From Cirrosporium novae-zelandiae (taxonomy: Eukaryota): DNA of 64,000 nt. Both the position numbers and the translations under genes were made by a program. Shown here in pieces: positions 7,178 through 41,391 of this stretch (within the stretch, counting starts at the first letter, position 1; each line of letters begins with the position of its first letter). The stretch covers positions 1 through 64,000 of the forward strand of contig JAPETS010000020.1 in the NCBI GenBank assembly GCA_026023565.1, written 5' to 3'. Below the pieces are notes generated by a model. The model was not told where the DNA came from, ran no database searches, and saw only the letters and a program-made list of their open reading frames with translations.

Positions 7178-7296
7178 GATCAGAAAATCCGTCCTGACTT
7201 GCGACTCAACTTGAAAGTCATTCTAGACGTCTTCAAAAATTCAATTGTTTTTCTCTTGACCTGGTAGTTACTAGACATCTTTCTTAAACTGCCAAT

Positions 7297-9441
7297 ATGT
7301 GTGGAATCTTTGCTTGTCATTGGTATGTTGCTCTCTGTTATGTCCTCTGATCCTTGTATCCCTTCCTGGAAAATTTGATGCCGCACGTCGCCAAGAGGAC
7401 AATGCTGACACCCTGCTTGCAGTCATCCTGATGTGGTTGCGTTTAAGCCCACGGCGCTGAAGATGGCGAAGGCGTATGTTTCTTCCCTTGATCAATTGGT
7501 AGCATCAGACAACTGATTTGGTGTTTCCAGCGTGCGGCATCGTGGCCCGGATTGGAGTGAGTCAATGGATAGTCTTGAAAAGTGAAAAATATTGATCGCG
7601 TGTAATGTAGGTGGAAACTACATCGGGGGCCAAACAAGTACACCACAACCATGATTGTCGCAAAGTAGACCCATACTTACATGGTGTATAGTTCTTGCTC
7701 ATGAGCGTTTGAGTATTGTCGGTGTTGGTAGGCTATTGCGACAGTCTGTTCTAAGGGGACAAATTATACTTATTGTTTGTAGACAGTGGAGCTCAACCCC
7801 TTACCAACGAAGATGACAGTCTGGCACTGGCCGTCAACGGCGAGATATACAACCACCGAGTGCTTCGAAAACACCTGAAAAACCCATACCCATTCAAGAC
7901 TCACTCCGATTGTGAAGTCATCATTCCCCTCGTGAGTATGGCATAATATATTTGGCGCCCATAGTGATTTCCTACAGTATATGGAACATGATATCGATGC
8001 TCCAAAATTCCTCGACGGCATGTTTTCATGGGTTCTGTATGATAAGAAGCAAGATCGCACAATCGCTGCAAGAGATCCAATTGGTGTTACAAGCTTTTAC
8101 CAGGGATGGTCAAGCAAGACCCCTGATGCTACCTATTTCGCCTCCGAATTAAAATCCTTACACCCTGTTTGCGACAAGATCATATCTTTCCCTCCCGGTC
8201 ACATCTATGACTCGAAAACCAAACAGACAACAAGATATTTCCAGCCAAAATGGTGGGATCCCACCAACGTTCCCAAGACGCCCGTAGACCTTAAAGCGCT
8301 GAGACATTCGTTGGAGCAGTCTGTTCGGAAGCGACTTATGGCCGAGGTTCCTTACGGTGTTCTTCTCTCAGGAGGTCTTGACTCAAGCTTGACTGCATCC
8401 ATCGCTCAACGTGAAACTCTTCGTATACAGTCATTACACAACGAAGATGCAGATGCATTAGTTGGAATCGACGACAACGGCGAACTCTCCACCGGCTCTT
8501 ACCTCCCTCAACTCCGATCGTTTTCAATTGGTCTACCTAACGCTCCAGACAGCAAAGCCGCCAAGGAAGTCGCCAAATTCCTCGGCACCAAACATTATGA
8601 TTTCACCTTTACGATCGATGAGGGACTGGATGCTCTCTCAGATGTGATTTATCATCTGGAAACTTACGATGTTACTACTATTCGCGCATCCACACCCATG
8701 TTTCTGCTTAGTCGTAAGATCAAAGCGATGGGTGTTAAGATGGTTCTCTCTGGTGAGGGTAGTGATGAAATCTTTGGTGGATATCTCTACTTCCATGCTG
8801 CTCCTTCCAAAGAGGCCTTCCACGCCGAATGTATTCGCAGAGTCAAGAACTTGCATCTTTCAGATTGCCTCCGTGCTAACAAATCCACCTGTGCATGGGG
8901 TGTTGAAGCACGTGTCCCATTCCTTGACAAGGAATTCCTGGAACTTTCCATGGGAATTGACCCTGAAGATAAGCTGATCAAACCTGGCCGCATCGAAAAG
9001 TACATACTGCGAAAAGCTTTCGACACTAGTGATGAACCTGAAACCGAGCCATACCTTCCAGACAACATCCTTTGGAGACAAAAGGAACAATTTTCTGATG
9101 GTGTAGGGTATGGATGGATCGACGCATTGAAGGATGAAGCAGAGAAAAAGGTTACTGATGAGATGATGAAAAATCCAAGAAAGGAGTGGGGTGATGATAT
9201 TCCCGATAGCAAGGAGGCATATTGGTACCGGTGTATGTTTGATGAGCTGTTCCCATCGTATTGTGCCAAGACAGTGATGCGGTGGACACCTACGTGGAGT
9301 AACCAAACGGATCCAAGTGGAAGGCAAGTACTCGATATCGGCCGAGTTTCTTCAAAGAGAGGCAGATTGCTAACCTTGAATATCTTTAGGGCTATTGCTA
9401 CACATGTTGCTACTTATGGGTCGGGTGAAGAGAAGAAGTAA
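7297..9441 (+). CDS. ASN1/ASN2: Asparagine synthetase, glutamine-hydrolysing (8 exons, five very short 5' exons, last intron GC-AG)
   Basis: N-terminal MCGIF (Ntn Cys2), [41 protein letters not shown] and [12 protein letters not shown]; the exons can be spliced in frame. Confidence 0.97.
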
Positions 9442-9619
9442 GGGAAAAAGATAGCTCGTAAGATACCATAAGGTGTGATAGATGTACCAGAAATGGTCGC
9501 ACGAAAGCAATTGCATTGAATTAATATGGTTTGTTGCCTTCTCTGGTAGGCAGATTTCACTTCCCTCTTCTCTCAATCAAAAAATAAACGAAACGAAATC
9601 TCATTGATATAAATAAAGC

Positions 9620-9626
9620 AAAAAAA
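9620..9626 (-). terminator. RNA polymerase III oligo(T) terminator of the atypical tRNA gene
   Basis: A7 on the + strand (T7 on the - strand) 10 nt after the discriminator base. Confidence 0.6.
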
Positions 9627-9635
9627 GTATATTGA

Positions 9636-9749
9636 TGCCCAAGGCTGGATTTGAACCAACATCTTCACAATTCATGCTAGCGACTCCGCCCTGTGTCAGG
9701 GTACACGCCTGCGTAGGCTTGTGACATTCTACCGTTAAACCACTTGAGC
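9636..9749 (-). tRNA. Atypical intron-containing tRNA gene (43-nt intron at 9713-9671); nominal anticodon CCT, Gly-like body, non-canonical A32/G33
   Basis: Minus strand folds as GCTCAAG/CTTGGGC acceptor stem, GTTT/GAAT D stem, TCACA/TGTGA anticodon stem and GTTGG-TTCAAAT-CCAGC T arm. T8, A14, G18, G19 and the A15:T48 Levitt pair are present, with a T7 Pol III terminator about 10 nt downstream. Confidence 0.7.
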
Positions 9750-10329
9750 TGTTGTTAAAAGGTAGGCAGTAAGTGTTTATTTAAGGATCACCGCTGATTG
9801 TGATGTTGGTCGGAGCCTTTAGGGTAAGAGGCCTTGCTGTGGCCCTTGCTCTCAACTTCTCGCCGACATATATCTCAAGATGGTACAGAGGACATTTTGA
9901 CTTAATACTTTCGCTCGGTATTACGTTTATCTCTTCCTAATGAGATAATCTCGCGTCATTAAATATCCTGAAGGTCTTGCATATGCCACCATACTTTTAT
10001 ATCATGTCATAGGAATACAACTAACGACAACCGTATTCGCATTCAATTCGAAGATCATCTTGAACCGTTTAGAATCAACACTGCAATCTGGTCCTAAATC
10101 GAACATTCTTCTGTTCTGCTAGCTTTTACCAGCCAGATAAGAGCATGAATCTCATTATTGACGTGATTTGTCATGGAGATTTGCTAAGAAATTTCTACTA
10201 CTTCCTGGCCTCTTTTGATCCTCTCCTTTGTCTCCTTGCTTTCATGCTCATAGTAATGGGAAGCTATAAAATACTGGTCCAGGAACCCAAAGCAACAAGA
10301 ACTGAAAAGACTAACCTCAACACGCAAGT

Positions 10330-11226
10330 ATGGACATGGAAATAGATACAGAAGAATCGCGGCAAGTACTCTCAAAAGTGCCACTCATATTTTCAGTTCA
10401 CATTCTCAAGCCTTTGCTCTGAAACATTTCCCAGTTGATGTGACTTTGAATTTGAGCTTATCATGACATCCTGTTTTAACTCTAAGGTTTTATCTACTAG
10501 TGACTTTTGCTAACTCGTTGTCCAAACAGTCCTAGTGAAAATGACGAAGTTCTAGTAACTGTCCATAGTAGTGGTGATAAACCGAGTGAGAGAAAATTCA
10601 TGGCATCCAGAAGGATATTATGCCAATACTTCAATGAATGGGACACACCGACCGACACTGGTTTTTCCCTAGCAATAAATCCCCCCTATGAGCCGGTTCC
10701 GGTATTCGAGATCTTTTACAAGTGGGCGTTAGCAGACAGCCGTGGCATAGATCAAGATATCTGTGATGCAGATTTGGTCGATTTAATAGACCGCGGGATC
10801 CAGGGGGACCTAGCACGCGACCCAGAACGAATCCGCGGAGTCGAAGCAGAGATTTTGGGCGACTGGCTGGGATGGTTGGCTAGTTGTTGGTTGTTCGGGC
10901 ATGAACACTATATTACCGGATTCCAAAATCATACCATGCGTGTACTGTTCAGCATAGTTACCGGAAAAGGCAGAGGTCCAACCCTATCTCCAGACTTAGT
11001 AGACAATATATTTTACGAGAGCTCGGACGACAATAGGCTTCACCTTTTCGCGATAAAGGCATTCATCCACGGAGGCTACACATACAAGCTAGAGAGGCGC
11101 TGGGCGATGATCCATCGCGATTTCCCTGAAAAAGTATTCCAGATTCTTTCCCAGGGATCGTCATGTCCATCGCTAGATATCAAGGATTTCTTGGTCTCCG
11201 ACGAAGATAATATTAGGGAAGACTAG
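10330..11226 (+). CDS. Hypothetical protein with a probable degenerate fungal BTB/POZ-like domain (5' exon uncertain)
   Basis: ORF 10507-11226 has a splice acceptor (GCTAAC...AACAG at 10529) and a BTB-like pattern VLVTV...KFMASRRILCQYF...VFEIFYKW...CWLFG...FQNHTM. A tentative first exon 10330-10361 joins in frame only through a GC donor. Confidence 0.6.
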
Positions 11227-12237
11227 TAGCACCACCATTTAGGCAGTATCACCCGCGATGCTATTCTACAGTTGTCACGTCACACCCCTCGCTCCAACAA
11301 GATACCACGAGCAGCCGTGACAGCACTCCTCCGCTTCGCCCTGGTGAAATGCTATTGGAGCTAGATATTCAGAATAATACCACCACTACTATCCTCAAAA
11401 CGTACGGCGATCAATCAATAGGTAATTTCTCGATCTATTTCACGTTGAAAGTTTTCCGAAGAGCAGCAGCAGGAATGGAAAAATAGCTTGTTAAGTTCCA
11501 TAACTTAGTCCCTAAATATTTAACTACCTATGCAAGCAATTCTACAGGTGAATTGCTATCCATCGCCTCAAAAAAAACTCTCATTAACAGCCAAAATTAC
11601 ATTCAAACCAGCAAGCAAGCCATATTCCATCTTTCCATCACTATCACCCACTACCACCACCACTACCACCACCGCCATCAGATCTGTCTGTAGACTTCCC
11701 CGCAACTCTCTCTCCCTTTCCCTCCCTTTCCCTCTCACAACCTCCTCGCAATCTCCATCCATCTTTACAACTCCTCCCCTATTTTCCCACTCCCCCAAAG
11801 AAAAAGCAGACTAAGTTATTATATATTATCTATTCCGTGCTCTACGCGCTCTCTATATTTCCATGTCCTGTGTATACCTTCTGTCCTTCTGTCCTATATA
11901 TCCTTACATATCCCACACATTCCGCGTTTTCAGGGATAATTCTAAGAAAAAAAGGGTTTTTTCAATTAATATATATGTGTGTGTGCTTCTTCATGAGTTA
12001 TTTTTTTTTGTCAATTCTTAAATCCTCCCCCCTTTTTTCTTTTTTTTTTAGGAAAATGATGATTAAAAAGAAAGACAGAAAGAAAGCTGGCATAATCAAC
12101 TACTTTTTTTGCGAGAAATTCTCTACATTTCTCTCTCTCTCTCTTTCACACACACACACTCTCTCTCTCACGCACACATTAATCTCTTCGCCTCAACCCC
12201 CCCAACTAAAAAAAAACCCCTCTGCCCCCCTCTCTCT

Positions 12238-12636
12238 CTAACACTTCCCTCCATTAGGATCATCCCTATAAAAAAACTCCCCATGATCCTGCTCACTCCC
12301 CATGTCACAAGCCTTCATCTCCTTCAACATATTCTTATGGCAATCCTGCTCCGTCAAGCTATTCCTCACCCCCTTCCGATTCTTCACCACAAAGTTCACA
12401 CGATCCCCGTTCTCGGTGTTGTAGCATTTGCGCTTGCTCTGTTTGGCGTGGAATGAACCTTTAAAGGAGTTGCAGGCTTTTTTTGCGTAAGCAGATAAGG
12501 AGTCGGAGATTCCGACATCGGACCAGGTTAGCCCGGAGGTGTAGCAGCCGTTTGCCTGGACTGAGGGGGGGAAAGTGAGGAGGATGAGAGTGAGGGTGAG
12601 GGTGAGGAGGAGGAGGTGGGAGTGGAAGGAGACCAT
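12238..12636 (-). CDS. Small secreted cysteine-rich protein (132 aa), Y3-like glycan-binding/effector candidate
   Basis: Hydrophobic signal peptide ending VQA; 6 Cys; C-terminal FFYRDDPNGGKC resembles the DPNxGxC terminus of Coprinus Y3-like proteins; intronless. Confidence 0.8.
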   Translation of the reverse strand: MVSFHSHLLLLTLTLTLILLTFPPSVQANGCYTSGLTWSDVGISDSLSAYAKKACNSFKGSFHAKQSKRKCYNTENGDRVNFVVKNRKGVRNSLTEQDCHKNMLKEMKACDMGSEQDHGEFFYRDDPNGGKC

Positions 12637-13776
12637 TTTTTTTTGAGGAGGAGGATGAAGATGAGAGGTGTGTTGAAGAGGGAGAGATTTGGGGTTTGCC
12701 GCGAGGTACTTTGGATGTTGCTGCTGCCGTCGATGCGACAATATGAGGGTATTTTGCTTGCAGAGAAGAGCTTTCCGCAATTTATATATCTAGGAACGCT
12801 GATGAATTGGAAAGTTTTGTGCAGCGGTGGGACTTTCCCGTTCGTTGCTGGTTGCTGGTTGCTTCTGGGGGGGGAGGGGTTTTTTGTTAGACCAAGCTCT
12901 CTCACTCAATATATTGGCGCAAAGAAAAAAAAAAAAGGTTAATCCCTTAGTTATAAATTCAAAACCATCAGACCAATTATAAAGATATAAAAAATTCCTC
13001 ACTAATTTTATTTTCCCCAAAACTTTTATTTCTTTATTCTCTTAATGATCAATGATGGATGGATGGATGATTAAAAAAAACGATGGTGAGATAAGTGAGA
13101 TCCACCCCCCCAAGAAAGAAAGAAAGAAAGAAAAGAACTCTCTGCTTTTTTATAAACGAACGAACCGCTTATCCACTTGCCGGGTTGCTCTTCTTTCTTT
13201 TTTTTCTCAATGGATACATACATTCCATATTCCACATCCCACACATCCCCGAGCCCATATTTTATTTTTTTTATTTTTTGCTTCTTTCACCTCGGTTTCC
13301 CCGTGACATCCCTTCCTTCACCACAAGACTCCACAAGAATCCACAATCCACAACCCCAAGGAGGGGAAAAAAAAAAAAAGGAGGGGGGGGGGGGGATAAA
13401 ACAAGTAATTACTTGTAGATCGGTAGCACAAGTACAAGTACAAGTAGGTAGATAAGTAAACCGAGATCGAAATCGAAATCGAAATCGAAATCGAAATCGT
13501 AACTCCTCAAACCCCAATTAACGAATGAACGAACGAACGAACGGGTGGGTTGGTGGTGGTGGTGGTCCCCTTTCTCCTCCCACTCCCCCTTTTTCCTCCT
13601 CCTCATTCTCATTCTCATTCTTCTTCTTCTTCTTCTTCTCATAGTACGTACCCGCAATGTAATCCCTCCTTCCCTCCCTTCCTTCCTTCCTTACCTACCT
13701 ACCCACTTTCCCCTTTTCTCATATTTCTACGGCTACCTGCATTTATATATATTATTATCATTATGTTGGGCTGTAA

Positions 13777-13807
<31 letters not shown>
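13777..13807 (+). repeat. G31 homopolymer within a microsatellite-rich intergenic region
   Basis: Uninterrupted G run; nearby (ATCGAA)n, (GAAC)n, (CTT)n, (GT)n, (GCAC)n and (GA)n tracts. Confidence 0.95.
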
Positions 13808-13810
<3 letters not shown>

Positions 13811-14745
13811 ACGGATGGGGGAGATGGAGGTATAGATGGATAGAGAGATCGTGAGAGGAAAGGAGCTGTGGGAGTTGTGGGATTAGGCGAAGCCTACAAG
13901 ATCTGATAATAATAATAATAATGGTGGTAGTGATACCCCCAACTACTTGCTTGGTTTTAGCTAATGGTGATTTTGTTTTAGTTGTTGATCTTGATGAGCA
14001 GAGAGAGTTTGTTAGAAAGGCAAGCCAAAAAAAAAAAAAAAAAAGGGACGTGGGATAATTAATTATTTGCTAATTATAGTACGTACTTGAGTGGGATACC
14101 CTAGTGTTAGGATATAGTATATATATATAACCTAGCTGCGGTGTAATGAGAGTTATTTTTTTTTTTTTTTGAATAGAGAATAGAGAATAGATAATGATAG
14201 GGACGTTGGGAGCGGTTGGGGTGTTGGAGTTTTAGTCTATAGTAAGTTCTAACTCGGGGGTCTTTGAGTCTTTACTGTAGACTAATAAGCCTTGAAACTA
14301 GAAAGCTAGAATTTGTATGTGTGTGTGTGTGTGTGTCTGTCTGTGTACTTGAGTAACTTAATTATCACAGTACCTAGGTAATTAGTTAGGCTTGAACTAC
14401 ACTTCAACCTCTTGCAATCCCGTAATCCCGCAATCAAGAACCAAGATCAAGAATCAAGAAAGGGTGGTCCCCCCGGCTTACACATACACATACACATAAA
14501 GGCAGCCACGCGAGCCAGCCAGGGAAAACCACTACTAACTAACTGGACTGGACTGGCATGCAGAACGCAGAAGCTCCCCCCCCCCCCATGGGCACAACTT
14601 GTCCGTCTGTATGCTCCCCTTACGAATTACAACCACCCGTGAGCACGCACGCACGCACGCACGCACGCATGCGATATATCACCAAATTGTTATTTATGTC
14701 TGTTTCCTATGGTCGTATGTACCTCCCTAGTTACCTCCCAGAATT

Positions 14746-14780
<35 letters not shown>

Positions 14781-15102
14781 AGTGCATAAGCAAAGTGTGT
14801 GTTAGTTGTAGGGGAATTATTATAACAACCAGTATTTTCTTCCAGTTTTGTTAGACTACTCTTTTCTTTTCTTTTCTTTTTTTTCTTAAAAGGCTTCATC
14901 TCTTGTAAAATCAGCGAAATATATGGTGTATTTTTAACTACAGTAGCTCGCTCTAGTTAACTTCCGGGATCCGTACACCCTTGCCCTTTTTTGTTTCTCT
15001 TTGGTTAATTCAGGGACTGACTGGTCCAAGTAAGTAAGTAATAATTAACAACAGCTTAACACTCACTAATACTGTCCCTTACCTTACACCGTGGCCCTCA
15101 CC

Positions 15103-18100
15103 TCACCTCAACCCCTGCATCCGAACCAACTCCCCATACACTCCGCCCCTCCTCCCAACCAATTCCTCATGCTTCCCCCACTCCACAAGCCTCCCCCTTT
15201 CCAACACACAAATAACCCCCGCCCTCCTCACCGTGCTCAACCGATGCGCAATCGCAATCGTAGTTCTATGCTGCGTGGCAGTGTCTAGGGCTGCTTGCAC
15301 CAGGGCCTCGGATTCCGTATCTAGTGCAGAGGTTGCTTCGTCTAGGAGGAGGATTCTGGGGTTGCGGAGGAGGGCGCGGGCGATGGAGAGGCGTTGCTTT
15401 TGGCCGCCGCTTAGGAGGGTGCCGCTGGAGCCGATGGGGGTTGAGAGGCCGGAACTGAGGGGTGGAAGGGGGGTTAGTTGGTTTTTTTATTAGTGCTGTT
15501 GCTGCTGCTGCTTTGTCGAGTGACGGGAGTAGTGGTTGGTGGTGCTGTGTTGAGGGGTGGGTGAATGGGTGGTAGGGAAGGAACGAAAAAAAAAGTGGGA
15601 TAGCTTACGGAAGAGAAGCAATAAAATCATAAATATTCGCCTGCTTGCAAACATCAATGATAGCATCATCGTCGACCTCCTGGCCCGCCAATCCAATAGC
15701 GATATTCTCACGAATAGTACCCGAGTACAACGTTGGCTCCTGACTAACCAGTGATATCATCCGACGGTACTGGTTGACATTGAGTTTTGAAATGTCCTGG
15801 CCGTCGACCTTGACGAGGCCGCTGGTCGGGTCGTAGAACCGCTCGATCAGCGAGACCAAAGTGCTCTTTCCGCACCCGCTCGGGCCCACCAGCGCAACGT
15901 ACTGGCCCGCCTCTATCGTGAGGTTGAAGTTGTCGAGGGCGAGTCGGTCGGGTCGTGATGGGTAGCGGAAGCTCACGTTTTGGATTTCGATTCGGCCTTT
16001 GCAGCTTGATTTTTCGATTTGGAGGTCAGTGGTGCTGTCTTTGGTGGTGCTGTCTGTGGTGGTGGTGGTAGTGGTGTTGTTGATGTGAGGTTTCCGTTTG
16101 AGAATTTCCGTTAGTTCTTGCGCGGCATGCATCGCTTTGCTCGCATCTGGCGCGTAGGAAAAGATGGATCCTGCGATTTGAGACCCCGATATCAGCGCGA
16201 CGAAGCAGATGTAGAATTGGAAGAGCGAATATTCGCCCTCTGCTATCAGCGTGCCGCCGTACCAGAACGCCAGTGCTGCGCAGAGGAATACGACCGACTG
16301 TGACGCGGCGAAGAGACTGGATGCCAGGAGGATCGACCGCAGAGACTTTACCGCTTGCTGGGCTAATATCCCATCGTACTGGACAAGGACAAACTCTTCG
16401 AGCCCGAGAGACGCCACAGTCCTCACGGATCCTACCAGCTCGCTGGCATACGCTGCCGAGTCTTGTCCGCTTTGTCTGATTTTGGAATCGAATACCGCTA
16501 GCATTTGGAGACGGACCCAGCCGCAGGCTACTACCACAGGTATGGTGGCGGTGCACACGAGGGCGAGTTTCCACCCGATAGCAATGGAGAGCACAATGCC
16601 CGTAATTATTGTCGAGATAAATGTCAGAACCCCACCGATGACGGGTCCACTTAGGTTGGTGATATCCTGCGTGCTTGTAGATAGCAGGCTGATGAGCGCT
16701 CCAGTGGAATGTGGCTTTTCATCAAAAAAGCTAATGTCTTGTGACATTATCGACCGGAAGCATAGGTCTCTAGCACGACGAGAGAGTCGCTCTGTTGAGT
16801 AAGAGAAAGACACCCCTACTCCCATCCAGAATATCAAGGCCACGCCCGCCATCATAAAGTACAAGCCAGACCAGAAATCGACCTGGCTTCTAAGCCGACC
16901 ATACTGCGAAGGAGGCAATGCTATGACTGCCAATAGTTTCGCAAATAGCAATGATTGTCTAGAGACGTATTAGCTGGTAGAAGCGAAATCATTTTGGGAG
17001 TTGATGGGGATTGACAAACACTGGAATGCCAAAACCGGCAATGATAGCACAGACAAGGCCAATAATTAATAGAGTACGCTCCTTACTGTTCAGCCGCCCG
17101 ATGAATATGAGGGTACGTGTCAGACTTAATTTGGTTTGCTTCTTGGCCTTTGTTGGTGAACTTGGTCCTGATTCAACATCATCGGCCAAAACATCTTCTG
17201 ATTTGTAAGCTCTCATCCCCTCTTTTGAAGAAGCATGAGCTACATCGCTGTCCTGGTCTTCAAACCGGAGTTCGTTCTTTTCATCTTCGTCGTCATCTTC
17301 TTTTATAGCTCGACGGGAGCCTTCGATCTGTTGTTTCTGCACCAAGCTAGCATAGAGACCATTTCGAGCGATGAGCTCATCATGCAGACCTTGCTCTACC
17401 ACTTGGCCTTTTGCCATGACGATAATATTATCAGCATTACGAATAGTGGATAAACGATGCGCAATCACAATCGTGGTTCGATGTTCTGCTGCTGTATCGA
17501 GCGCCTGCTGGATTGTGGCCTCTGACTTTGAATCCAGGGCTGAGGTTGCTTCATCCAGCAGAAGAATCGGTGGATTGTTTATCAGAGCTCGCGCTATGGC
17601 AATACGCTGCCGTTGGCCTCCAGAAAGCTGTAATCCCTTCTCACCAACTTGTGTTTGGTAGCTATCCGGCAAAGCCGCAATAAAGTCATGTGCATTTGCC
17701 TTCTGTGCGGCGACTATAACATGTCCTTCGATCTCTTTTTCCGATAGCTGGGACGGTGAATTAACAAGTCCATATCGAATATTATCAAATATTGTCGTGT
17801 TGAATAGAACAGGCTCTTGACCGACGAGGGACATTTGACGACGTAGCCAGTGAAGATTGAGCGATTGAATGTCCTGTCCGTCCAGCACTTTGAAAATTAG
17901 CTGTTTACATAGGCATTTCTCCTTGGCACGCTGAACCACTTACAAATTTGGCCTCTGTTTGGCTCATAAAACCTTTCAAGCAACCCGATGATACTGCTCT
18001 TTCCACTTCCCGAAGCCCCTACAATGGCCGTCGTCTTCATCGCTGGACACCTAAAAACAACATTATCTAGTACGACTACATCATCCCGTGATGGATATAC

Positions 18101-19273
18101 AAGACTAACGTCTCGAAGTTCAATGTCTCCCTTGACGTGATTAAGCTGCTCTCCGCTTGATGCAAATGGATCCTGTGGAGAGCGTCGAGCTATTGCTTTG
18201 AGAACAGCACCTGCGCTCGCTATGCTCGAGGTGAGGGCTTGAGCAGAAGGGGCAACTCTAACAATCGCAAAGGCCCCAATGGTCACGGCCAGTGTAGTAG
18301 TAGTAAGTTCTGAAATAGATACCTCTCCCTTCACCAGAAATTGAGAACCTGCCCAAAACGACAGAGCATATGCCAGACATGGCATAGCATTTGACCAGGC
18401 TATCATCACTGAGACGGTGTTTCGAGCTTTGATTTCTGGCCTTGCAGCATCGGTCAAGCACGAATAGTATCTTTTAGCGAGGAGCTCCTGGATACCAAAT
18501 GCAGAGACATGTCTCGCAGAAGCGAAAGCTTCTTCGGCCAGACCAGAAGCACGGCTATAAATTGCCATGGCCCTCTTGTGGTATTTGACTGTATAGGCAC
18601 CTCCAATGGCACCAGTGACAATCATGACAACGAAAGTGGGACTGAGAATTAAAGCTGTTTTCCAATACATAATGAAAGCAATAACAAAAGCTGCGCCAAA
18701 TGTCGCAACCGCATTCAACGCTATGGAAATCTTGCTCGTGATACCCTCTTGAATGAGACCCATATCAGACATGATGCGAGTGGTAATCTCGCCAGGACGA
18801 AGAAGATCGAAAAATGCAATGTTCTGCCGTAGTATTGCTTTGAGGTAAGCTCGCCGAAGGGCACGCGCCATGCGCTCTCCGACATAGTAGAACCCGACGG
18901 TTGAAAGGTAAATAAAAACGAAGATGGCGATGGCAAGGTAGATATAGTACAGACTGTAGGTTGAGATCTTGGACCGCAGCTGCGAACCAGAAACGGAACC
19001 AGCAGTGAAGCCATCAAACACACCGACCAGTTGACCATAAATGACCTGAACAGGGTATTAGGACCGCATTTGTGTTCTGAGAGGAAAAACTACCGTCAAG
19101 AGGGGATTTAGAGCACCAGCGATAACGGCGCTAAGGGCACTGATGAAGAGGATAAATTTGTCGGACAAAGTGGTATATGTAAACACAGTCCTTTTGCCCC
19201 TCTCTGGCTGACTAGGCAAGCCATTTAGCTGGCGGTCTAATATCTCCCTTTCCTGCTCGTCAAGATGCATCAT
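15103..19273 (-). CDS. Full-length ABCB/MDR-type ABC transporter (TMD-NBD-TMD-NBD, 5 exons)
   Basis: Walker A motifs GASGSGKS and GPSGCGKS, signatures [15 protein letters not shown] and [15 protein letters not shown], Walker [13 protein letters not shown] twice; four GT-AG introns keep the frame. Confidence 0.95.
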
Positions 19274-19507
19274 TGAGAGATTCTATAAACCCGAGGCAAA
19301 AGAGAAAGAAACAAAACTCGTGCAGAGAAAAAACTGCAGCATAGTTAGTAGAAAAGATTTTCTAACAAATCTCTTCATAACGTTGAACTGGTTAGTGGGA
19401 TCTACGTTAGTAAGGACTTGAGCAGCCTGCAGGTTGCCGGGATTGTAGTTGAGAGACATGAAGAATGAGGTGCTGTAACACAATGCCAAGCTGTCCTTGC
19501 ATGACAA

Positions 19508-19525
19508 TCTGACTGTCCTCTGACT
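19508..19525 (+). promoter_or_regulatory. TCTGACTG-N3-TCTGACT direct repeat in the ABC/aminotransferase divergent promoter
   Basis: TCTGACT-GTCC-TCTGACT; the same 11-bp-period architecture recurs at 22502-22519. Confidence 0.5.
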
Positions 19526-19774
19526 CTCCATCTTACTTACCCCAGTGACTTTGGAATCTCATCCATCGATATTTGCTTGTCCTGTACATGTATGTATAGT
19601 TCTTTTTGGGATATTACTATATTGCCTTATATAAGATAATAAATTATTAGAATTACAGCCAGCTTAGTGCAGGCTTAAAAATCCCTCTTTGAAATAATCA
19701 TTAATTTCAGTCTAACCATTTCACCTTCAATGCCCTTGAGAGCATTCTAATTTCGAATCTTTAGAGCTTCCAAA

Positions 19775-21285
19775 ATGAATCAATTGAACGGTACAGACGC
19801 GGAATCTCCGACAAGCAGAATCCTCCACCCGAATATTCACCATCCGAATCCAAAGGTCGTCTCGGCCAAAGGCAACTACTTGATCCTCGAGAGCGGACAA
19901 AAAGTCCTAGATGCTACTGGGGGGCCGGCAGTAGCATGCATCGGACACGGAAATGTCGAAGTCAGAGACGCGGTCGTCAGACAGATGGACCAACTCTCCT
20001 TCTGCCATGGTTTATCATTTTCAAATTCAGCCGCAGAGGAACTCGCAAGAGAAATTGTTAGTTCAACCAACGGAGTCATGGCTAGGGCAACCATAATGTG
20101 CTCAGGTGAGCAAGAAAGTAGCTCGATATATGCGAGGCTGATATATATAGTCAGGCTCGGAAGCAGTGGAGGCAGCCATGAAGCTCGCACGGCAATACGC
20201 CGTCGCTGTTGGACAGCCAAAACGGAGACGTTTCATAGCTCGAAGGGGGGCGTTCCACGGAACCACATTGGGATCTCTTGCAATGACCGCGAAAGCCGGC
20301 GTGCAAAGACCGTTCGAACCACTCCTTAACAAGGACGGTGTATCTTTCGTGTCGATGCCCAACATCTACCGCGCAATTCACGCTGGCGAGGCCATACCCG
20401 ACTACGTCTCACGACTTGCCGATGAGCTTGATGCCGAGTTTAATCGCATTGGTCCTGAGAATGTGTGCGCATTTGTTGCAGAGACGGTCAGCGGCAGTGT
20501 GAGCTAATAATTTACCCCTTCCTTTCATCTGACGATGATGGTGCAGCATCCAAGTACTAAGAGTATAGTCAACGGGCTGCCTTGCAGCCCCCCCAGGCTA
20601 TTTCCGCGCCGTTCGATCCATCTGCGACAAGTACTCCGTCCTCCTTATCCTAGATGAAGTCATATGCGGCATGGGCCGCACAGGCACCACCCACGCATGG
20701 CAGCAAGATAATGTCTCACCGGACATCCAAACTGTGGCAAAAGGTATTGCTGGGGGGTATGCTCCGATTTCGATGTTGCTGATGAACCAACGGGTCGTCG
20801 ATGGGATCGACGCTGGTGGTGGCTTTTTCAATCACGGACACACATACGGTTCGCACGCGGTATCCTGCGCCGCAGCGGTTGCAGTGCAGCGCATCGTCAA
20901 GCGCGATAACCTGCTTACGAATGTAGCGCAGATGGGAAATCGGCTGGGAGAGGGTCTACAGGCGGGGCTTGGCAGGCATCCACACGTAGGCGATATAAGA
21001 GGACGGGGACTGTTCTGGGCGGTGGAATTCGTAAGAAATAAGGAGACGAAGGAGCCGTTCGGGGCAAAGGAAGGTATTTCGAGGAAGATTAGACAAACGG
21101 GCATGAAAGAACCGTGGAATATCTCTCTCTACCCAGGCTCGGGCACAGCCGATGGAGAGTCAGGGGACCACATAATGATTTCGCCTGCATATAACATTAC
21201 AGCAGAGGAAATTGATCTGATCGTGAAGCTAGTTAAGGGGGTTGTAGAGGAGGTGTTAGGATCCCAGAAAGCAAAAATATGTTAA
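19775..21285 (+). CDS. Class III PLP-dependent aminotransferase (omega-transaminase-like, 3 exons)
   Basis: LDATGGPAVACIGHG, CSGSEAVEAAMKLARQY, AFHGTTLGSL, FVAETVSG, LILDEVICGMGRTG, PLP-lysine motif TVAKGIAGGYAP and HGHTY. Confidence 0.93.
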
Positions 21286-21317
21286 ATTATATAGATAGCA
21301 TCCTTACATAGTTTCTC

Positions 21318-22322
21318 CTACCACGCAATATCCTTGTGATCGAATGTACGGAAACCACAGTCCTTACCTTTTCCCATGCGGTCAATCTAATTTTCATGTT
21401 AGCTATAATCTCGCATCACTTAGATCTTCCACGTGCTACTCACCTCCTCAAATATTCCCTCTACCGACTCTTTCAGCGTAACCGGTGCCTCCTTCAATCC
21501 CTGTTCCACCGCCCTCGCATTCCCCATATCAGTTTGAATCCACCTAATCCACGCACGAGTGTCAACAACACCATAACCCACAGAAAAAAATGACAGCTGA
21601 CTGGATTATCAAAACCCATTCGGAAAACCTACCCTGGATGCACCACGCACACGGCCACAGCTTCTTCCATCTCCTTCCCCAACTTTCTCACCAAATAATT
21701 GCCCGCTGCCTTGCTAGTACCATAGGCAGCATCGGCCCATCCGCCCGTCTCCTCCACCCCCACTACACTTCCCACTATGCTCCCAATCGCCACAAACTTG
21801 GGATTGTCAGCCTTCTGCAAGAGCGGCCACGCCGCCTGGAACAGCAGCAAGGGAGCTAGAGAATTGACTGCCAAGGATCCCAAGAGTCTGTCGGGAGTAA
21901 CATCGAGAATTGGGACGCGAGGAGAGGAGGTACCTGCATTTGCAATGACGACGTCGATGTGAGTGACTTCGGGGTGGGTGGAGGAAAGGGCTGCAAAGGC
22001 CGAGATGGCATGGTTCACAGATAAGTCAGATCCAGCGGAGCCAGAGGGGAAGGAAAGGGGGACGTGAATCATGGTGGTCGTTGGATGGGTGGGGAGCGAG
22101 CTAAGTGACTGGGGGGTGGAAGTAAAACGGGTGGTTGCAATTACGATGTGGTGGGGGCGGAGGAGAAGGGCGGAGGTTAGGGCGTGGCCAAGACCTATAC
22201 CATATTCCGGGATGCATTAAGATGAGCCGGTTCGAGAGAGGAGTAAGGCGGATGACAAAACGGAATGGGGATACTGTACCTCGGTTGGTGCCTGTAATGA
22301 GGAATATTTTCGCTTTCGCCAT
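21318..22322 (-). CDS. Short-chain dehydrogenase/reductase (Nor-1/CsgA-like ketoreductase, 4 exons)
   Basis: Spliced TGTNRGLG cofactor motif, IDVVIANAG, catalytic YGTSK, VHPGWIQTDMG, ending HKDIAW*. Confidence 0.9.
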
Positions 22323-22480
22323 GATTCAAGGAGCTGATGAAGTGAAAATTGCGACGCTGCGGAGGGTGAGTATGACCCTTAGAATGCAATTCCTCGTCCT
22401 CTTGTAGACGATTATTCCACCCTCTCGGATTCCATCATCACTCACTTTCTCGCACGTTGAAATGGGATGGTGATGGAAAG

Positions 22481-22519
22481 TCTGACTAATTCTTATGCTT
22501 GTCTGACTGCGGTCTGACT
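22481..22519 (+). promoter_or_regulatory. Three TCTGACT copies, including TCTGACTG-N3-TCTGACT, in the SDR/P450 divergent promoter
   Basis: TCTGACT at 22481, 22502 and 22513; matches the motif in the cluster's other divergent promoter. Confidence 0.5.
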
Positions 22520-22624
22520 AGGTCGTTCAGGGACCCCAGCCACTGCTGTTCCTGCTCTTAATGATTGTAGCTCCGTGCTAGGGTTCTAGGTCCTCGGACT
22601 GTCTCTACCATCTCATGTTAAGCA

Positions 22625-24383
22625 ATGTTTCAAGCCTTATTTTCAGAGCCTTCTCAAGTTTTGCGGCGCTGCTGTGATGTCGGCAAACTCGATGTTTCAC
22701 GCCAGAATGTTTTTGTAGCCGCGATAGCCATTTCGTCCAGCTTAGTACGTTAAGATCTCACACATATCCTATTTGATTCTAATTATGCACAGTACCTCTG
22801 CTACCTGCTAGCAGTCGTGGTGTACAATGTTTACTTTCATCCTTTATCCAAGTTCCCCGGCCCCATTTGGTGGGGTGCGACTCCCATACCCTACGTATGG
22901 TATCAGATCACCGGACGGCTCCCATTTGTATATGAGCAACTCCATGAAAGATATGGGGACGTGGTTCGTGTGTTGCCTTACAAGCTCTCGTTCCGAACGC
23001 CTGCCGCCTGGAGAGACATATATCAAATCCGGCCGAAGCAAAAACTGATGACAAAAGACCCTAAGAGCCTGAAGCCAGGATCCGAGGGCGTTTACAACAT
23101 CATTACGAGCTTCAATGCAGCAGAGCATTCTCGCTATCATGGAAAGTTAAGTCCGGCCTTCTCAGCCCAGGCAGCCCAAGCGCAGGAGCCGATAGTTATG
23201 CACCACGTTGACCTGTTAATGAAAAGGCTGCACGAATGCTGTGTCAAAGGACCCCAGAACATAGTAAAATGGTCAAACATGATTTACTTTGACATCGTCG
23301 CTGATTTGACCTTTGGCGAATCTCTTCACAGTCTTGAAAAGGGGGAGCCACATTCTTGGCTCAAGGGTCTTTTTGGTAGTACGATGACTATGATCACATT
23401 TCACAGAGCGATAGGGCAGTTCCCGCATATTGCAAAGTTTTTAAAGTACTTTACTCCGCAGGTGTTGATAGACCAGCAAGTGAAACACAATGACTTTGTA
23501 CGCCAGAGCGTTGAGCACCGCATGGCATCAAAAACAGACCGTCGTGATTTTATGAGCTACATTCTCCCGTATGATGAGAATTCGGCTTCCATGAGCATGT
23601 CGGAGGTGCGAGCAACATACGGCACTCTGATGCTCGCCGGTAGCGAGAACGTGGCAACAACATTCTCGTTCACGATATACCACCTCCTCAAGAATCCAGA
23701 CGCGATGAAAAAACTCGTAAGTGAAGTCCGACACAACTTTTCCAGCGCAGATGAGATCGACTTCCGGGCGGCCAACAGTCTGAAATATATTTCGGCCGTT
23801 GTCAACGAATCTATGAGAATTCATCCGGCGGCACCGACATCTCAGCCGAGAGTTGTTCCTGAAGGTGGTGCCACTGTTGCGGGATACTGGGTTCCGGAAG
23901 AGGTAAGAATATCATTTACTTATCCTTTCGTATCCCCTCTCCAGGGGCCATTTCACATGCTAGAATTAGAAAACTTCCTGACCTCCATTTTACCTGTAGA
24001 CAAGAGTTGCAGTCCCGCCTTACTGCATGCACCACTCCCCACGATACTTCAAAGATCCCGAATCCTTCATCCCCGAGCGCTGGCTCGGCGACCCACGCTT
24101 CGACTCGGACAACCGAGGTGTATTCCATCCATTCCAATTAGGGCCCAGAGCATGTGCGGGACAAGTGTGAGTGAACTTGATGTCGACACCACCTACCAAA
24201 ACTAATCGAATTCTTAGTCTGGCGTTGGCGGAACTTCATATTGTGCTAGCAAAACTCCTGTGGAATTTTGATCTCCAGCTTGATGAGCGATGCGAAAACT
24301 GGGATGAGAATATGAAAATATTTCATCTGTGGCAATTACAACCTCTATATGTTCAGCTGCAGCCTGTACAGGAACGCATGTGA
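22625..24383 (+). CDS. Cytochrome P450 monooxygenase (secondary-metabolism type, 4 exons)
   Basis: N-terminal membrane anchor plus FHPLSKFPGP; I-helix AGSEN; ExxR (NESMR); PERW; heme-binding FQLGPRACAG. First exon 22625-22744 splices in frame. Confidence 0.94.
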
Positions 24384-27508: not shown

Positions 27509-29932
27509 CCAAAGGGTTATGTTATGAATATGGTATTATTGGATTATTGGGAGAGGCTGAGGCTGAGGCTGATGGACAGGGACGTTGTTGTGATGGGTGA
27601 CACAGGAGGGAAAAAAGCAAAGAGTATTAAAAATAAAGAAATGAAGAAAAGCAAGTTGTAATCTTGATGGTGGATCAGGTGCATCGGTTGAGAAATACTG
27701 CTTGCTGATGAAGCGGGTGTTGGATGATGGCGTTCCTTGAAAGTAGATTATCGAGCAATGAAGACAAGGCAACGCCCGTTGCAGCCGGAATTCGGGATAG
27801 CGACGTCATGACCCCCCCATGGCCCCCCCATGGCCCCCCCATGGCTCTCATAGCCCCCCCGACCACCCCGACCCCCTCGACCTTGTTCGGAAATCAATGT
27901 CAGCAAAGACCACCACCAGGGTCAAGCCCTTGTCAAGTCCTTGTCATTTACCTTTCCTTTACCTTCCTTTACCTTTTCTTTTGCTCAACATCACTCGAAT
28001 CGTACCACTTATTGGTCAACAGTCCAATCGATGTGAAATACTCAATTTCAACTTCTATATCACCAGGAACAATTCAGTCTTACACTTCTAACATTTCAAA
28101 ACTTTCATCTCTTGTCGCCATCATGGCCAAACAATACCTAGTGATATCCTGCAGCATATAACCTAGTTCATCCTACAGGCATGCAGTCCCGACAGGAGAT
28201 ATCAAATGAACTGTTTTCGAGTCATTTGCATGATTGATTGATCGATTGATGAGTTTTCATCCATCCTTCAAACTTTTATCATCCCCATCCGTGCAACTTT
28301 GGGTTATGCCGGAACTTTACTATGAACTTACCCCTGAATGATAAGGTCTTCTGCTGCAACATCTCTTTCCCGAAAGGGCACCTTGTACAAGGACAACATA
28401 CTTTCAAATTCTATTCTTGAGTGTATCTCAGATCCATATCCCATATCCATTCAAAGCTCTTCCCGTTGACATCAAGTTTTCCTTTGTATTCGTTCTTCGC
28501 CGAGAACAATGGCCGGAAATCCAACCGACCAAACCTTACATACACATTCAATGCAGCTCTATATTCTTGAAGTCTAAATGCATACCCCTAAGGGACTGAT
28601 TTTTAATGTGGTCAGCGTGTTTGTCCTGAATGACTGTCCGTTCTTCCTACGCAAATATCCCCCGTTCAATGAAATGCTACTGAGCCCCACAGGTTCTTTG
28701 GGCTTTCATGTCTCTAGATGCAGGACCTGGGGTTAATTCCATGTCTGGTGAAATTCGATGCTGCATTAAGGATGTCAACATGGAGTTCTAGCTTCTAGCC
28801 TTATGGTTGCTTCGGTTGATTTCTAATACCCATTCATAAAGTACCATGCAGATGAACTGTTGTGTATCCATGACTGCCTAGAATAATTTCCATTCCTTGG
28901 GTGCAAATACTCCAATCACCGTTTCCCTTATTCAGCACAAGTAAGTAGGATATTAACGGTACTCAAAAACAGCAGAATTAGTCAGTTCACGTCATCAAGG
29001 TCTTGGAACAAAATAAATTTCTAATCAAATCCGATTTCCGCATCAAGCCAATGGCAGGGTTTTAGGTGAAATAAAGGACATCCATATTTCTTTATATGGA
29101 ATGGGCACGAACGATCTAGGATTGTATGGTCCCTGGTCCATGTGTGTGGGGTCTTTTTCGGATCCAATCCTTTGGCACCCTAGTATGAACCGCCAGAGGT
29201 GTTGATGGCCCTTGTTAGATATTTGAAGCAGTGAGCAAGCATTTGATATTGATGTCCCTGCCACACGGATTCTTTTTGTTTTCCTTGTCTTTCCGTCTCC
29301 AATCTTTCTCTAGCCCTCCACCTTTAACCCTATACTACCTCTACTAGGATTGATGGCAGAAGACATGGAATCAAGACAGAAGGCCGATTCGTGATGCTCG
29401 CTTCCACTGGAACAAGTAGGACATGATCGCCGATGTCGACTTTTTTTTAGGTTTCTGTACATTACCGACTTCTCCTTCTCGCCTCGGATGATAGCAACAA
29501 TGAGCTCTTGGGCTGAAGAAAGATTCCAAGTCGATATTTATTCCAGGTTCAAGGCTCCACGTCTTAGAATGTCCCAGACTATTCGGCCCCTTATTCCTTA
29601 TGGAGACACATTATCGGCATGGAATTCAGTTAGCTGATATTAACAACAATTATACATCATCGCCATCCGACCCAAACACCCCCGGAATCTTAAAGGTTTC
29701 CAGGTACCATTTTATATGCAAAGAAGATTAAATTTCTAAAAGGATCAGCGGAACCGGTTCCATTATCTAAAAAAGCTTACCGAACACGAATTCTCTCGGC
29801 ATAAAACCCTAAACCCACACACCAACCAATTATCCATCCAATCAAAAACAAAAACTCTGATGACATTCTTACCCAACCACAAAAAAAAAAAGATAAATCA
29901 CTCAAGAACAAAATTTTCTTAATTTCTTTTGT

Positions 29933-30016
29933 AGGTCCTACCCGGAATCGAACCGGGGTTACCGGAAAGTTCTGGAAAATCAGAATCCGATGTGCTAACC
30001 GCTACACTATAGGACC
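29933..30016 (-). tRNA. tRNA-Gln(CTG) with 12-nt intron
   Basis: GGTCCTATAGTGTAGCGGTTAGCACATCGGATTCTGA[intron]TTCCGGTAACCCCGGTTCGATTCCGGGTAGGACCT forms a canonical cloverleaf. Confidence 0.95.
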
Positions 30017-30409
30017 GCCTTTTTTTTCGGTTGTGTTGAAAGAAGATCTGACCTTCAACTGTGTTCACCAGGTTTGGTATTTACGTTTTTATAACGATGA
30101 TTCTTTCGGCGATGTGACATGTCACTACGATTCCCGACAGAAAGAAAGAAAATGAAATTAATGAAAAAATAGGCGGGGAAAAGATACCTCAGACCTTCGG
30201 CCATCCCAAACTATTTAAACGGTCGCTCGCCGTGTACATCCTCCGCGGTATTCCACCACCCTCTCTTTTCCATTTCCATTCCCCCGTATCCACCCCATCT
30301 GAGATGGAACAAGATAAAAAAGATGATTACGACTTTTACAGCATATGATACCCGAACTTTCCTTTCTTTTTTTCTTTCTTCCCAAAAAACGTCCCTCGCT
30401 TCTTTGTAT

Positions 30410-31150
30410 GGAAACCTGATTCCCAGAACAAACAAAATCCAAGAAAGAATACAGACACCCCACCTTCGATTCATCTCAAAGAAGTCTAGATATATCTTTA
30501 TTGCATCATTATTCAACAGATACCGCAAAAAGCTGTTAATAGCCCAAGAGGAAAGTTCGCTTAATAGGGACTTGGTTACCAACACAACCAAAATTCAGAA
30601 AGCACACAAGACACCCCACCCACCTTTGACTCACTCGCTCTCAAAGAAGTCTAGATACCTCTCTACCGTATCACAATCCAACAGATATTATAAAAGAAAT
30701 ATCAATAACCCGAGAGGCAGGTTAACACAGGATGCTATTAAACGCCATACTTGATATGGGGATCTAATTCCCAAAGAAACCGACAACACCTAAGAAAGAG
30801 CTCAAGACACCCACCCAACCCACCTTTAATGCACTGACTCTTAAAGAAGTCTAGATATATCCCTACTATACCGCCACCATTTAATAGATACCGCAAAAAG
30901 ATATTAATAACCCAGGAAGCAAGTTAACAATACTATTAAACGCCACGCTTGATATAAAGATCCAATCCTCAAAACAACCAACAACATCTCAAGAAAGAAG
31001 ACAAGACATCCACCCACCTAACCCACCTTTGACTTATTCATTCTTAAAGAAGTTTAGATATATCCCTTACCGCACCACCACCATCTAACAAATACGAGAA
31101 ATATTATATAGCCCAGAAAATAAAATAATAGAATATTGCTAAACGCCACC
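30410..31150 (+). repeat. Degenerate tandem repeat, about 4 units of roughly 165-203 bp
   Basis: Core AAAGAAGT(C/T)TAGATA recurs (GAAGT at 30481, 30646, 30846, 31049), with shared flanks AGACACCC...CCACCTTT, AATAACCC/AATAGCCC and TATTAAACGCCA. Confidence 0.85.
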
Positions 31151-31204
31151 CACCCACCCAGAAACACTATTCAATAAAAATTCCACACAACTAGCCAGCC
31201 TGTA

Positions 31205-31252
31205 TACATACATACATACATACATACATACATACATACATACATACATACA

Positions 31253-31280
<28 letters not shown>
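31205..31280 (+). repeat. (TACA)19 microsatellite
   Basis: Perfect tetranucleotide tandem. Confidence 0.97.

Positions 31281-31286
<6 letters not shown>

Positions 31287-41357: not shown

Positions 41358-41391
<34 letters not shown>

Follow-up and report, generated by a model that had tools for sequence, protein, structure and literature searches.

The 64-kb stretch of Cirrosporium novae-zelandiae DNA analysed here (the window) holds, at 15103-24383, four genes in the order ABC(-), AT(+), SDR(-), P450(+), which form two divergent pairs. In our hand-built exon models all four are intact and intron-containing, at the coordinates given in the initial annotation, and every intron is of the GT-AG type (48-154 nt). 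The ABCB exporter gene (15103-19273, minus strand; 1283 aa from 5 exons at 19273-19094, 19045-17944, 17887-17020, 16958-15609 and 15454-15103), which judging by the numbering corresponds to NCBI M1834_003131, is separated by a divergent promoter region of 501 bp (19274-19774) from the gene for a PLP aminotransferase of the class-III omega-transaminase type (AT; 19775-21285, plus strand; 463 aa from 3 exons at 19775-20105, 20155-20498 and 20569-21285; NCBI M1834_003132). The AT stop codon ends at 21285 and that of the convergent SDR gene lies at 21318-21320, leaving the 32-bp spacer (21286-21317) that had been noted initially. The latter gene encodes a classical SDR of the nor-1/sniffer-like carbonyl reductase type (21318-22322, minus strand; 257 aa from 4 exons at 22322-22280, 22194-21633, 21543-21444 and 21386-21318) and shares a divergent promoter region of 302 bp (22323-22624) with the gene for a membrane-anchored cytochrome P450 (22625-24383, plus strand; 520 aa from 4 exons at 22625-22744, 22793-23902, 24000-24166 and 24218-24383; NCBI M1834_003134). 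Our AT and P450 models are letter-for-letter identical to M1834_003132 and M1834_003134 (P0001 and P0121, from the Cirrosporium novae-zelandiae MAG), and the NCBI model of the SDR, M1834_003133 (202 aa), corresponds to ours with part of the N-terminus missing. A comparison of the two promoter regions found no common motif beyond chance.

The exporter has the architecture TMD-NBD-TMD-NBD, with two ABC_membrane and two ABC_tran domains in Pfam, and both of its nucleotide-binding sites are complete (Walker A at 403 and 1075, LSGGQ at 515 and 1181, Walker B at 535 and 1201), placing it among the full-size ABCB (MDR/P-glycoprotein/Ste6) exporters; its best solved matches are yeast Ste6 (E 7.7e-149) and then ABCB1/ABCB4 (E ~1e-130). 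The P450 (Pfam p450, E 4.8e-38) carries the motifs AGSEN (322), ESMR (379) and PERW (435) and the heme loop FQLGPRACAG (455) behind a hydrophobic N-terminus followed by PGP; heme loop, ExxR, I-helix and membrane anchor together are those of a predicted class II microsomal enzyme. In the SDR (Pfam adh_short), the 257-aa model contains the classical TGxxxGxG, NAG and YxxxK signatures as TGTNRGLG (10), NAG (100) and YGTSK (172), along with HPGWIQTDMG (200); the 202-aa NCBI model lacks TGTNRGLG, and relatives carry the same N-terminal motif. Its best solved relative is the carbonyl reductase 7ypd (E 6.5e-12), and relatives are annotated as norsolorinic-acid ketoreductase. An Arg within the glycine motif and another after strand 2, the latter present in 9 of 9 aligned rows, are the signature of NADP(H)-type reductases, which suggests NADP(H) as the cofactor. 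Because of this pattern and the ketoreductase-named relatives, the alcohol-oxidising role that the initial annotation had assigned to the SDR appears doubtful; the signature fits carbonyl reduction, as in deamination or detoxification, better.

In the aminotransferase, Pfam Aminotran_3 (PF00202) extends over all three exons and covers profile positions 12-397 of 403, and the protein matches 147 solved class-III sequences at E <= 1e-20, the best of them being 3i4j together with omega-transaminases of Streptomyces and Pseudomonas. In alignments with 3i4j, 9qgh and 9qc2, K283 (vaKGiagg) and D254 (lilDEv) fall on identical residues; we take them to be the catalytic Schiff-base PLP lysine and the aspartate that contacts the PLP pyridine, and with the full-length domain they mark the protein as a predicted class-III (fold-type I) enzyme. 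The Tyr of the conserved YHG motif is replaced by Phe (F144) in all ten aminotransferases of the cassette clade, while 33 of the 34 rows from the general family or from bacteria, and all three best solved relatives, have Tyr there. As judged from the alignment, F144 is a variant inside the class-III family and no ground for exclusion from it. In a tree built from 45 of 121 rows, the cassette enzymes form a separate paralogue clade of 10 rows (99% SH-aLRT), nested within a general fungal class-III family that is present as one copy in most Pezizomycotina and is often annotated beside, or fused with, exo70. The cassette AT shares 50-58% identity over exon 3 and the same fold-type-I motifs with this family, but differs from it by its own clade, six fixed substitutions (YHG to FHG among them) and another gene neighbourhood. 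Bogoriella and Colletotrichum possess both paralogues, and the distribution of the cassette clade among fungi is patchy. Most likely, the cassette AT is a paralogue that took on a new function, its parent enzyme being widespread in fungi. The Cirrosporium AT (0.22) and P450 (0.24-0.27) do not sit on long end branches, which argues against decay of either gene.

The same four genes recur elsewhere. On a Helotiales-like metagenome contig (L001), all of them are found in the order and orientation seen in Cirrosporium: ABC(-) at 2-1828 (60-73% identity, for the N-terminal half of our exporter), AT(+) at 3209-4679 (59-68%), SDR(-) at 4971-5800 (44-53%) and P450(+) at 6608-8408 (53-56%). The outer flank is unlike that in the window: at the place of Ysc84 in Cirrosporium, L001 carries a PKS and a deaminase-like gene. 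As L001 and a second contig, L002, represent one organism, conservation of the ABC gene counts as one independent locus. The P450 clade comprises 15-16 rows and includes enzymes of Glarea, Trichoderma, Stachybotrys and Pyrenula. In five of the seven named non-Cirrosporium genomes with a member of this clade, AT and P450 orthologues lie two to three genes apart according to accession numbering: Glarea (EPE26985/EPE26987), T. asperellum (TrAFT101_004844/004846), T. evansii (KAL6901275/277), Stachybotrys elegans (KAH7309186/183) and Pyrenula (Q9160_001298/001301), a set spanning Leotiomycetes, Sordariomycetes and Eurotiomycetes. In three assemblies, SDR relatives agree with P450 relatives in the length of the longest contig (67391, 154141 and 24274). 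Partners are missing in places: among the 120 matches listed, Bogoriella, the Colletotrichum acutatum complex and T. chlorosporum, all in the AT clade, have no orthologous P450, Cudoniella and A. versicolor, in the P450 clade, have no clade AT, and at L003, the locus of a related P450, no cassette partner lies within 10 kb. The initial annotation had regarded the four genes as a unit, a view that would fall if their orthologues never lay together; all four do so on L001, as do AT and P450, by accession, in the five genomes, and the shared patchy distribution to be expected in gene trees is seen in the AT and P450 clades, which match in trees that are broadly congruent. As other fungi show this arrangement too, the grouping, as judged by sequence comparison, is more than chance, and its recurrence in distant fungi makes one shared pathway very likely.

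What, then, could such a pathway accomplish? The best reading of the locus would be a co-inherited four-gene metabolic cassette of Pezizomycotina, devoted to oxidation, transamination and efflux of a lipophilic substrate; the substrate, the order of the steps and their direction are what we infer. That the four genes constitute one functional unit we hold to be probable, whereas the further proposal that this unit makes and exports an amine is a tentative one, which we rate a little below even. In this proposal, the ER-anchored P450 would oxidise an unactivated carbon of the substrate, and P450s of this kind can oxidise all the way to the carbonyl. The class-III omega-type transaminase would then turn this carbonyl into a primary amine, and the NADP(H)-type SDR would adjust a carbonyl or alcohol on the same molecule. 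Finally, the P-glycoprotein-type pump would export the resulting amphipathic cation and thereby protect the producer; ABCB1-type pumps prefer hydrophobic cations.

Similar sets of enzymes are found in known systems. Clusters of the fumonisin/AAL-toxin type draw on similar families, namely an aminotransferase-superfamily enzyme, an SDR ketoreductase, P450s and an ABC protein (FUM8, FUM13, the FUM P450s and FUM19). However, FUM8 belongs to the class-II oxoamine synthases rather than the omega-transaminases and catalyses the condensation of a PKS-bound chain with an amino acid, and these clusters, unlike the cassette window, are built around a PKS. Alike in description, rather than in sequence, is the Bmt branch of the cyclosporin cluster of Tolypocladium inflatum, where the HR-PKS SimG is accompanied by the P450 SimI, which carries the oxidation of a lipophilic acyl chain as far as the carbonyl, the aminotransferase SimJ, which installs the amine, and SimD, a clustered ABC pump for product export and self-tolerance (PMC6168864). 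As described there, the Sim genes share their cluster with an NRPS, a PKS and a bZIP regulator, none of which occurs in the Cirrosporium window, include no functional SDR, and yield an alpha-amino acid that is used by the NRPS and is not necessarily an exported amine. The plant precedent for pairing a P450 with a class-III transaminase, invoked initially, is real: in Solanum steroidal alkaloid synthesis, GAME4 makes an aldehyde on a lipid derived from primary metabolism, and its neighbour GAME12, a class-III GABA transaminase neofunctionalised from core metabolism, adds the nitrogen (PMC11666457). As with GAME12, the cassette AT is a paralogue that has diverged from a more general family, and the plant GABA transaminase POP2 is among its solved relatives (E 6.3e-65). 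Nevertheless, GAME4 and GAME12 represent an independent recruitment in another kingdom and come without an SDR or ABC partner.

Does the cassette need a backbone enzyme? When stop-to-stop ORFs of at least 90 aa over the whole window were scanned against Pfam, a search that shorter exons escape, no PKS, NRPS, terpene synthase, DMATS or transcription-factor domain turned up elsewhere in the 64 kb, and tblastn with the HR-PKS of L001 gave no match (best E 0.85), in agreement with the initial annotation; the canonical fungal cluster with an internal backbone gene is thus not what the window holds. The other domains are of housekeeping type (Pex19, UQ_con, Asn synthase, GBD_Y3, Ysc84, WSC, Pol eta, RTC, PLAA/Doa1 and 5-phosphatase), and the cassette has housekeeping genes to either side. 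L001/L002, however, the one relative in which the flanks can be read, has an HR-PKS (KS-AT-DH-MT-ER-KR-ACP) 3.2 kb beyond the P450, and an adenosine-deaminase-like gene separates the two. This calls into question the claim that the module is self-contained and makes a reduced polyketide a plausible substrate in this relative. The four genes could accordingly be a tailoring-and-export sub-cluster that modifies a reduced polyketide chain, its ancestral HR-PKS having been lost or residing elsewhere in Cirrosporium, as a remnant or split cluster; we regard this as the less likely course, though one to be reckoned with. Cirrosporium does keep an HR-PKS, P0277, that is 49% identical to that of L001, on a different contig (174843 vs 599686), and the Sim genes provide a precedent joining HR-PKS, P450, aminotransferase and ABC pump (PMC6168864). 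Against this stand the absence of any PKS trace from the window, between its housekeeping flanks, and the intact, not fast-evolving state of the four genes. Moreover, none of the best 120 relatives of the L001 PKS is on a contig that matches in length one with an AT, P450 or SDR orthologue, a weak negative from a word-based search; this holds for Glarea as well, the named genome with the P450 most similar to that of L001 (69%). The PKS on L001 bears on the alternative, named initially, that homologous clusters always include a backbone gene, but among these 120 relatives it is not seen to be conserved with the cassette. For Cirrosporium, the substrate would thus not come from a neighbouring synthase, but presumably be a lipid of primary metabolism or else be made by a pathway whose genes lie elsewhere.

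The same enzymes could also run in reverse, as a detoxification cassette in which the AT deaminates a toxic lipophilic amine (an alkaloid, an analogue of a sphingoid base or the like), the SDR reduces the carbonyl, the P450 hydroxylates and the ABCB pump removes the toxin together with its products. Such a role would be in keeping with the NADP(H)/ketoreductase signature and nor-1-type relatives of the SDR, with the MDR-type pump and with a window devoid of pathway regulator or synthase, as well as with the occurrence in Trichoderma and Stachybotrys elegans, mycoparasites that meet the toxins of other fungi; the bacterial class-III transaminase FumI, alike in description only, deaminates hydrolysed fumonisin. 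Yet the cassette contains no importer or hydrolase gene and the association with an HR-PKS on L001 fits biosynthesis better, so that we consider detoxification rather unlikely. Still more improbable, and already disfavoured, is adjacency without shared function, in which a Ste6/MDR-type pump of the ordinary kind, a surplus transaminase, an SDR and a P450 would just happen to be neighbours. In fungi each of the four families has very many members, the pump resembles the a-factor exporter Ste6 most closely among solved proteins, the promoters share no motif, and some clade members lack partners, among the matches listed and at L003. However, such a coincidence would hardly yield the same four genes in identical order and orientation between different outer flanks on L001, nor AT-P450 spacing kept in five named genomes of three classes, nor broadly congruent trees.

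The reading we prefer therefore remains that of a co-inherited cassette acting on a lipophilic substrate. We found no publication on this four-gene cassette in the literature; if it is indeed one unit, it would represent an uncharacterised pathway.

Are the four neighbouring genes at window 15103-24383 a functional unit? Hand-built gene models that follow reading frames and GT-AG junctions, with families assigned by Pfam, describe an ABCB transporter (19273-15103, minus strand; five exons, 1283 aa), a class-III aminotransferase (AT; 19775-21285, plus strand; three exons, 463 aa), an SDR (22322-21318, minus strand; four exons, 257 aa) and a P450 (22625-24383, plus strand; four exons, 520 aa). 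These models bear out the coordinates and orientations of the initial annotation, as well as the 32-bp gap it had reported between the AT and SDR stop codons. The reading frames of all four genes are open and their catalytic motifs are in place: two copies each of Walker A, signature and Walker B in the pump, K283 and D254 in the AT, TGTNRGLG, NAG and YGTSK in the SDR, and ExxR with the heme loop FQLGPRACAG in the P450. The AT and P450 translations are exactly those of M1834_003132 and M1834_003134 in the metagenome-assembled genome of Cirrosporium novae-zelandiae, a member of the Xylobotryomycetes (PMC6712537). The SDR model deposited at NCBI, M1834_003133 (202 aa), begins only at an internal Met and is missing the first exon, of 43 nt, along with the cofactor motif TGxxxGxG; we favour the 257-aa model because relatives carry the missing N-terminus. 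In exon 4 of the ABC gene, a Thr-rich low-complexity linker (window 15990-16080) lies ahead of the second nucleotide-binding domain.

The surroundings of the cassette were assessed by Pfam on stop-to-stop ORFs of at least 90 aa over the whole 64 kb, a scan in which short exons fall below detection. Only housekeeping-type domains were recognised in such ORFs outside the cassette: Pex19, an E2 enzyme, asparagine synthase, a GBD_Y3 protein, Ysc84, WSC, DNA polymerase eta, RNA cyclase-like, Doa1/PLAA and inositol 5-phosphatase. PKS, NRPS, terpene synthase, DMATS and transcription-factor domains were not found in these ORFs of the window, nor was a PKS remnant detected there, and no recognisable gene lies in the 2.3 kb before the 3' end of the pump gene or in the 1 kb after the P450. 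Matches to terminal repeats or mobile-element signatures around the cassette consist of homopolymer and low-complexity sequence only, and the dinucleotide indices for RIP are unremarkable (TA/AT 0.59-0.94); by neither sign does the cassette look recently inserted. Long homopolymers (poly-A, poly-T, and poly-G at about 13775-13797) fill window 12900-14200, a gap free of genes that lies upstream of the 3' end of the pump gene. Further away, window 28000-44000 is AT-rich (GC 0.36-0.44), holds few long ORFs and shows a large, alternating GC skew (-0.32 to +0.20); its only recognised ORF carries a WSC domain (38486-38866), and its dinucleotide indices are not RIP-like.

A search of JGI metagenome contigs, based on an aligned set of 18 close P450s, yielded 33 pattern matches, of which four were confirmed loci; two of these, L001 and L002, belong to one organism (99.93% over 6799 nt). 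In L001 all four cassette genes are ordered and oriented as in the window: ABC (2-1828, minus strand, truncated by the contig end; 60-73% identical to the window gene), AT (3209-4679, plus strand; 59-68%), SDR (4971-5800, minus strand; 44-53%) and P450 (6608-8408, plus strand; 53-56%). The outer flank of L001 is unlike that of the window. Because its P450 falls in one group with the Glarea enzyme (69% identity), the organism is probably Helotiales-like and far from Cirrosporium. The two divergent promoters of the cassette have two 9-mers in common, against an estimated one or so expected by chance, and the four promoters of window and L001 taken together share no k-mer of at least 8 nt; this comparison is evidence in neither direction.

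Judging from accession numbers, AT and P450 orthologues lie two to three genes apart in five named genomes: Glarea lozoyensis (AT/P450 EPE26985/26987), Trichoderma asperellum (TrAFT101_004844/004846), T. evansii (KAL6901275/277), Stachybotrys elegans (KAH7309186/183) and Pyrenula sp. (Q9160_001298/001301). Close spacing is thereby seen in five of the seven named genomes with a P450-clade member, Cirrosporium excluded; from Cudoniella and A. versicolor, which also have such a P450, no clade AT is among the 120 best AT matches listed. In three assemblies, SDR and P450 relatives agree in the length of the longest contig and so appear to be on the same contigs, which does not by itself prove adjacency. 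There are exceptions. At L003, another related P450 locus, the cassette partners are absent within 10 kb of the P450, which belongs to a sister, Xylaria-like clade. For the AT subclade of Bogoriella, the Colletotrichum acutatum complex and T. chlorosporum, no orthologous P450 is among the 120 listed; in Colletotrichum abscissum, the annotation of the cassette-clade AT describes a fusion of 830 aa with an MFS transporter domain (database match P0247), and this subclade may have an MFS transporter as partner instead of the P450/ABC set. The L001 arrangement, the AT-P450 spacing and the apparent contig sharing of SDR and P450 put the grouping beyond chance, and we consider it very probable that the four genes are a real unit.

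An AT tree was built from 45 of 121 sequences, hand-picked for best matches and taxon spread, with two bacterial sequences as the root. In it, the ATs of the cassette make up a 10-row clade (99% SH-aLRT) nested inside the general fungal family, with both paralogues present in Bogoriella and Colletotrichum. Two P450 trees, of 34 and 24 rows, yield a clade of 15-16 rows whose main groupings are those of the AT tree: Trichoderma groups with Stachybotrys, Cirrosporium and Glarea are close by, and Pyrenula branches more deeply. The AT and P450 histories are therefore broadly congruent and patchy. Six fixed differences set the cassette AT clade apart from the general family, one of them a Y to F exchange in a conserved YHG motif whose Y is found in the three best solved relatives; the exchange would fit a change of substrate. 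The general paralogue bears the name 'exocyst complex protein exo70' in the annotation of several genomes of Xylariales and Hypocreales (P0019, P0079, P0081, P0084, P0090, P0095), and five of these six proteins are fusions of about 1050-1080 aa; names and fusions suggest that exo70 and the general paralogue are conserved neighbours whose gene models are often merged.

Does the unit work without a backbone gene? The initial annotation had proposed a core-less module, for which the lack of a PKS trace in the window speaks, and against which stands a highly reducing PKS (HR-PKS) near the P450 in L001. There, a gene with an adenosine/AMP-deaminase-like domain (9066-10525, plus strand) begins 660 bp past the P450, and beyond it lies the HR-PKS (11653-18192, minus strand; KS-AT-DH-MT-ER-KR-ACP); the window has a counterpart of neither. 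As L001 is the sole relative with readable flanks, homologous clusters may yet prove always to include a backbone gene, which the initial annotation itself named as refuting its proposal. By the names of its relatives (ZEA2/Hpm8/'PKS01'), the PKS is of the zearalenone/hypothemycin HR-PKS type. When the 8000 candidates sharing most words with it were scored, the best match was a Cudoniella protein (59%) on a contig other than that of the Cudoniella P450; Cirrosporium's own relative (49%) is on another contig, and none of the best 120, Glarea included, is on a contig whose length equals that of an AT, P450 or SDR orthologue's contig. Together with the type of the PKS, these contig positions argue against a conserved association with the cassette; given the scope of the search, the absence of matching contigs is weak evidence. 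On balance, true backbone independence seems rather unlikely.

What could the cassette do? Solved relatives of the AT are omega-type transaminases, GABA-T POP2 and BioA-like enzymes, those of the pump are Ste6 and ABCB1/ABCB4, and the best one of the SDR is a carbonyl reductase, its database relatives being named norsolorinic-acid ketoreductase. The SDR also has arginines in a pattern pointing to NADP(H), a cofactor preference that usually means reduction; the alcohol oxidation that the initial annotation had assigned to this enzyme is therefore doubtful, and the SDR might instead reduce another carbonyl. Conversion to a carbonyl by a P450 followed by transamination is an established route for bringing nitrogen onto a lipid, exemplified by GAME4 and GAME12 of Solanum, the latter a neofunctionalised GABA transaminase (PMC11666457), and the cyclosporin cluster has a route that passes from SimG through SimI to SimJ, where SimD, an ABC exporter, confers tolerance (PMC6168864). 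Aspercryptin was dropped as a close analogue, its aminotransferases being branched-chain enzymes (BAT) of another class (PMC8262921). On the strength of the solved relatives and the GAME and Sim precedents, we favour a scheme in which a lipophilic substrate would be oxidised and transaminated and the resulting amine pumped out. In our estimate, the cassette has a little under an even chance of making and exporting an amine; the whole of it may also work the other way, deaminating and detoxifying, as the initial annotation had envisaged too. The observation of the initial annotation is confirmed and its interpretation supported in part. Improbable, in our estimate, is a portable 'C-H amination and efflux' cassette that would need no backbone: with a P450, a neofunctionalised omega-transaminase, an SDR and an MDR pump alone, and in the absence of PKS, NRPS or terpene synthase, diverse ascomycetes would make a secreted cationic amine from a primary lipid (sterol, fatty acid or sphingoid-type). 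If true, it would be a fungal 'pseudo-alkaloid' pathway class invisible to backbone-centred genome miners, and a fungal counterpart of the plant GAME4/GAME12 invention.

Searches by family terms, and by accession and locus tag for the genes of Glarea, Trichoderma and Cirrosporium, supplements lying outside their reach, found no publication on these genes or the four-gene set; the family terms led only to reviews, one on fumonisin/AAL and others general, and to a Fusarium HGT locus that is unrelated. In the Glarea genome paper, the only aminotransferase mentioned is that of the pneumocandin cluster, and Protein Atlas matches for the P450 are generic ascomycete P450 clusters only. The logic of P450, transaminase and pump is already known; what would be new is a cassette that is conserved, stands alone, includes an SDR and, in at least one genome, lacks a synthase. 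It offers a concrete case in which to ask how many conserved metabolic clusters of fungi escape notice for want of a recognised backbone gene, and its variable neighbours, housekeeping genes in the window and an HR-PKS in one relative, make it a good system for the shuffling of tailoring and export modules between pathways. If the cassette does act as a unit, it would offer a compact four-gene target for heterologous expression, and possibly an unknown fungal amine family or a new mechanism of amine-toxin resistance, in hosts that include biocontrol Trichoderma, the pneumocandin producer Glarea and lichen-associated fungi.
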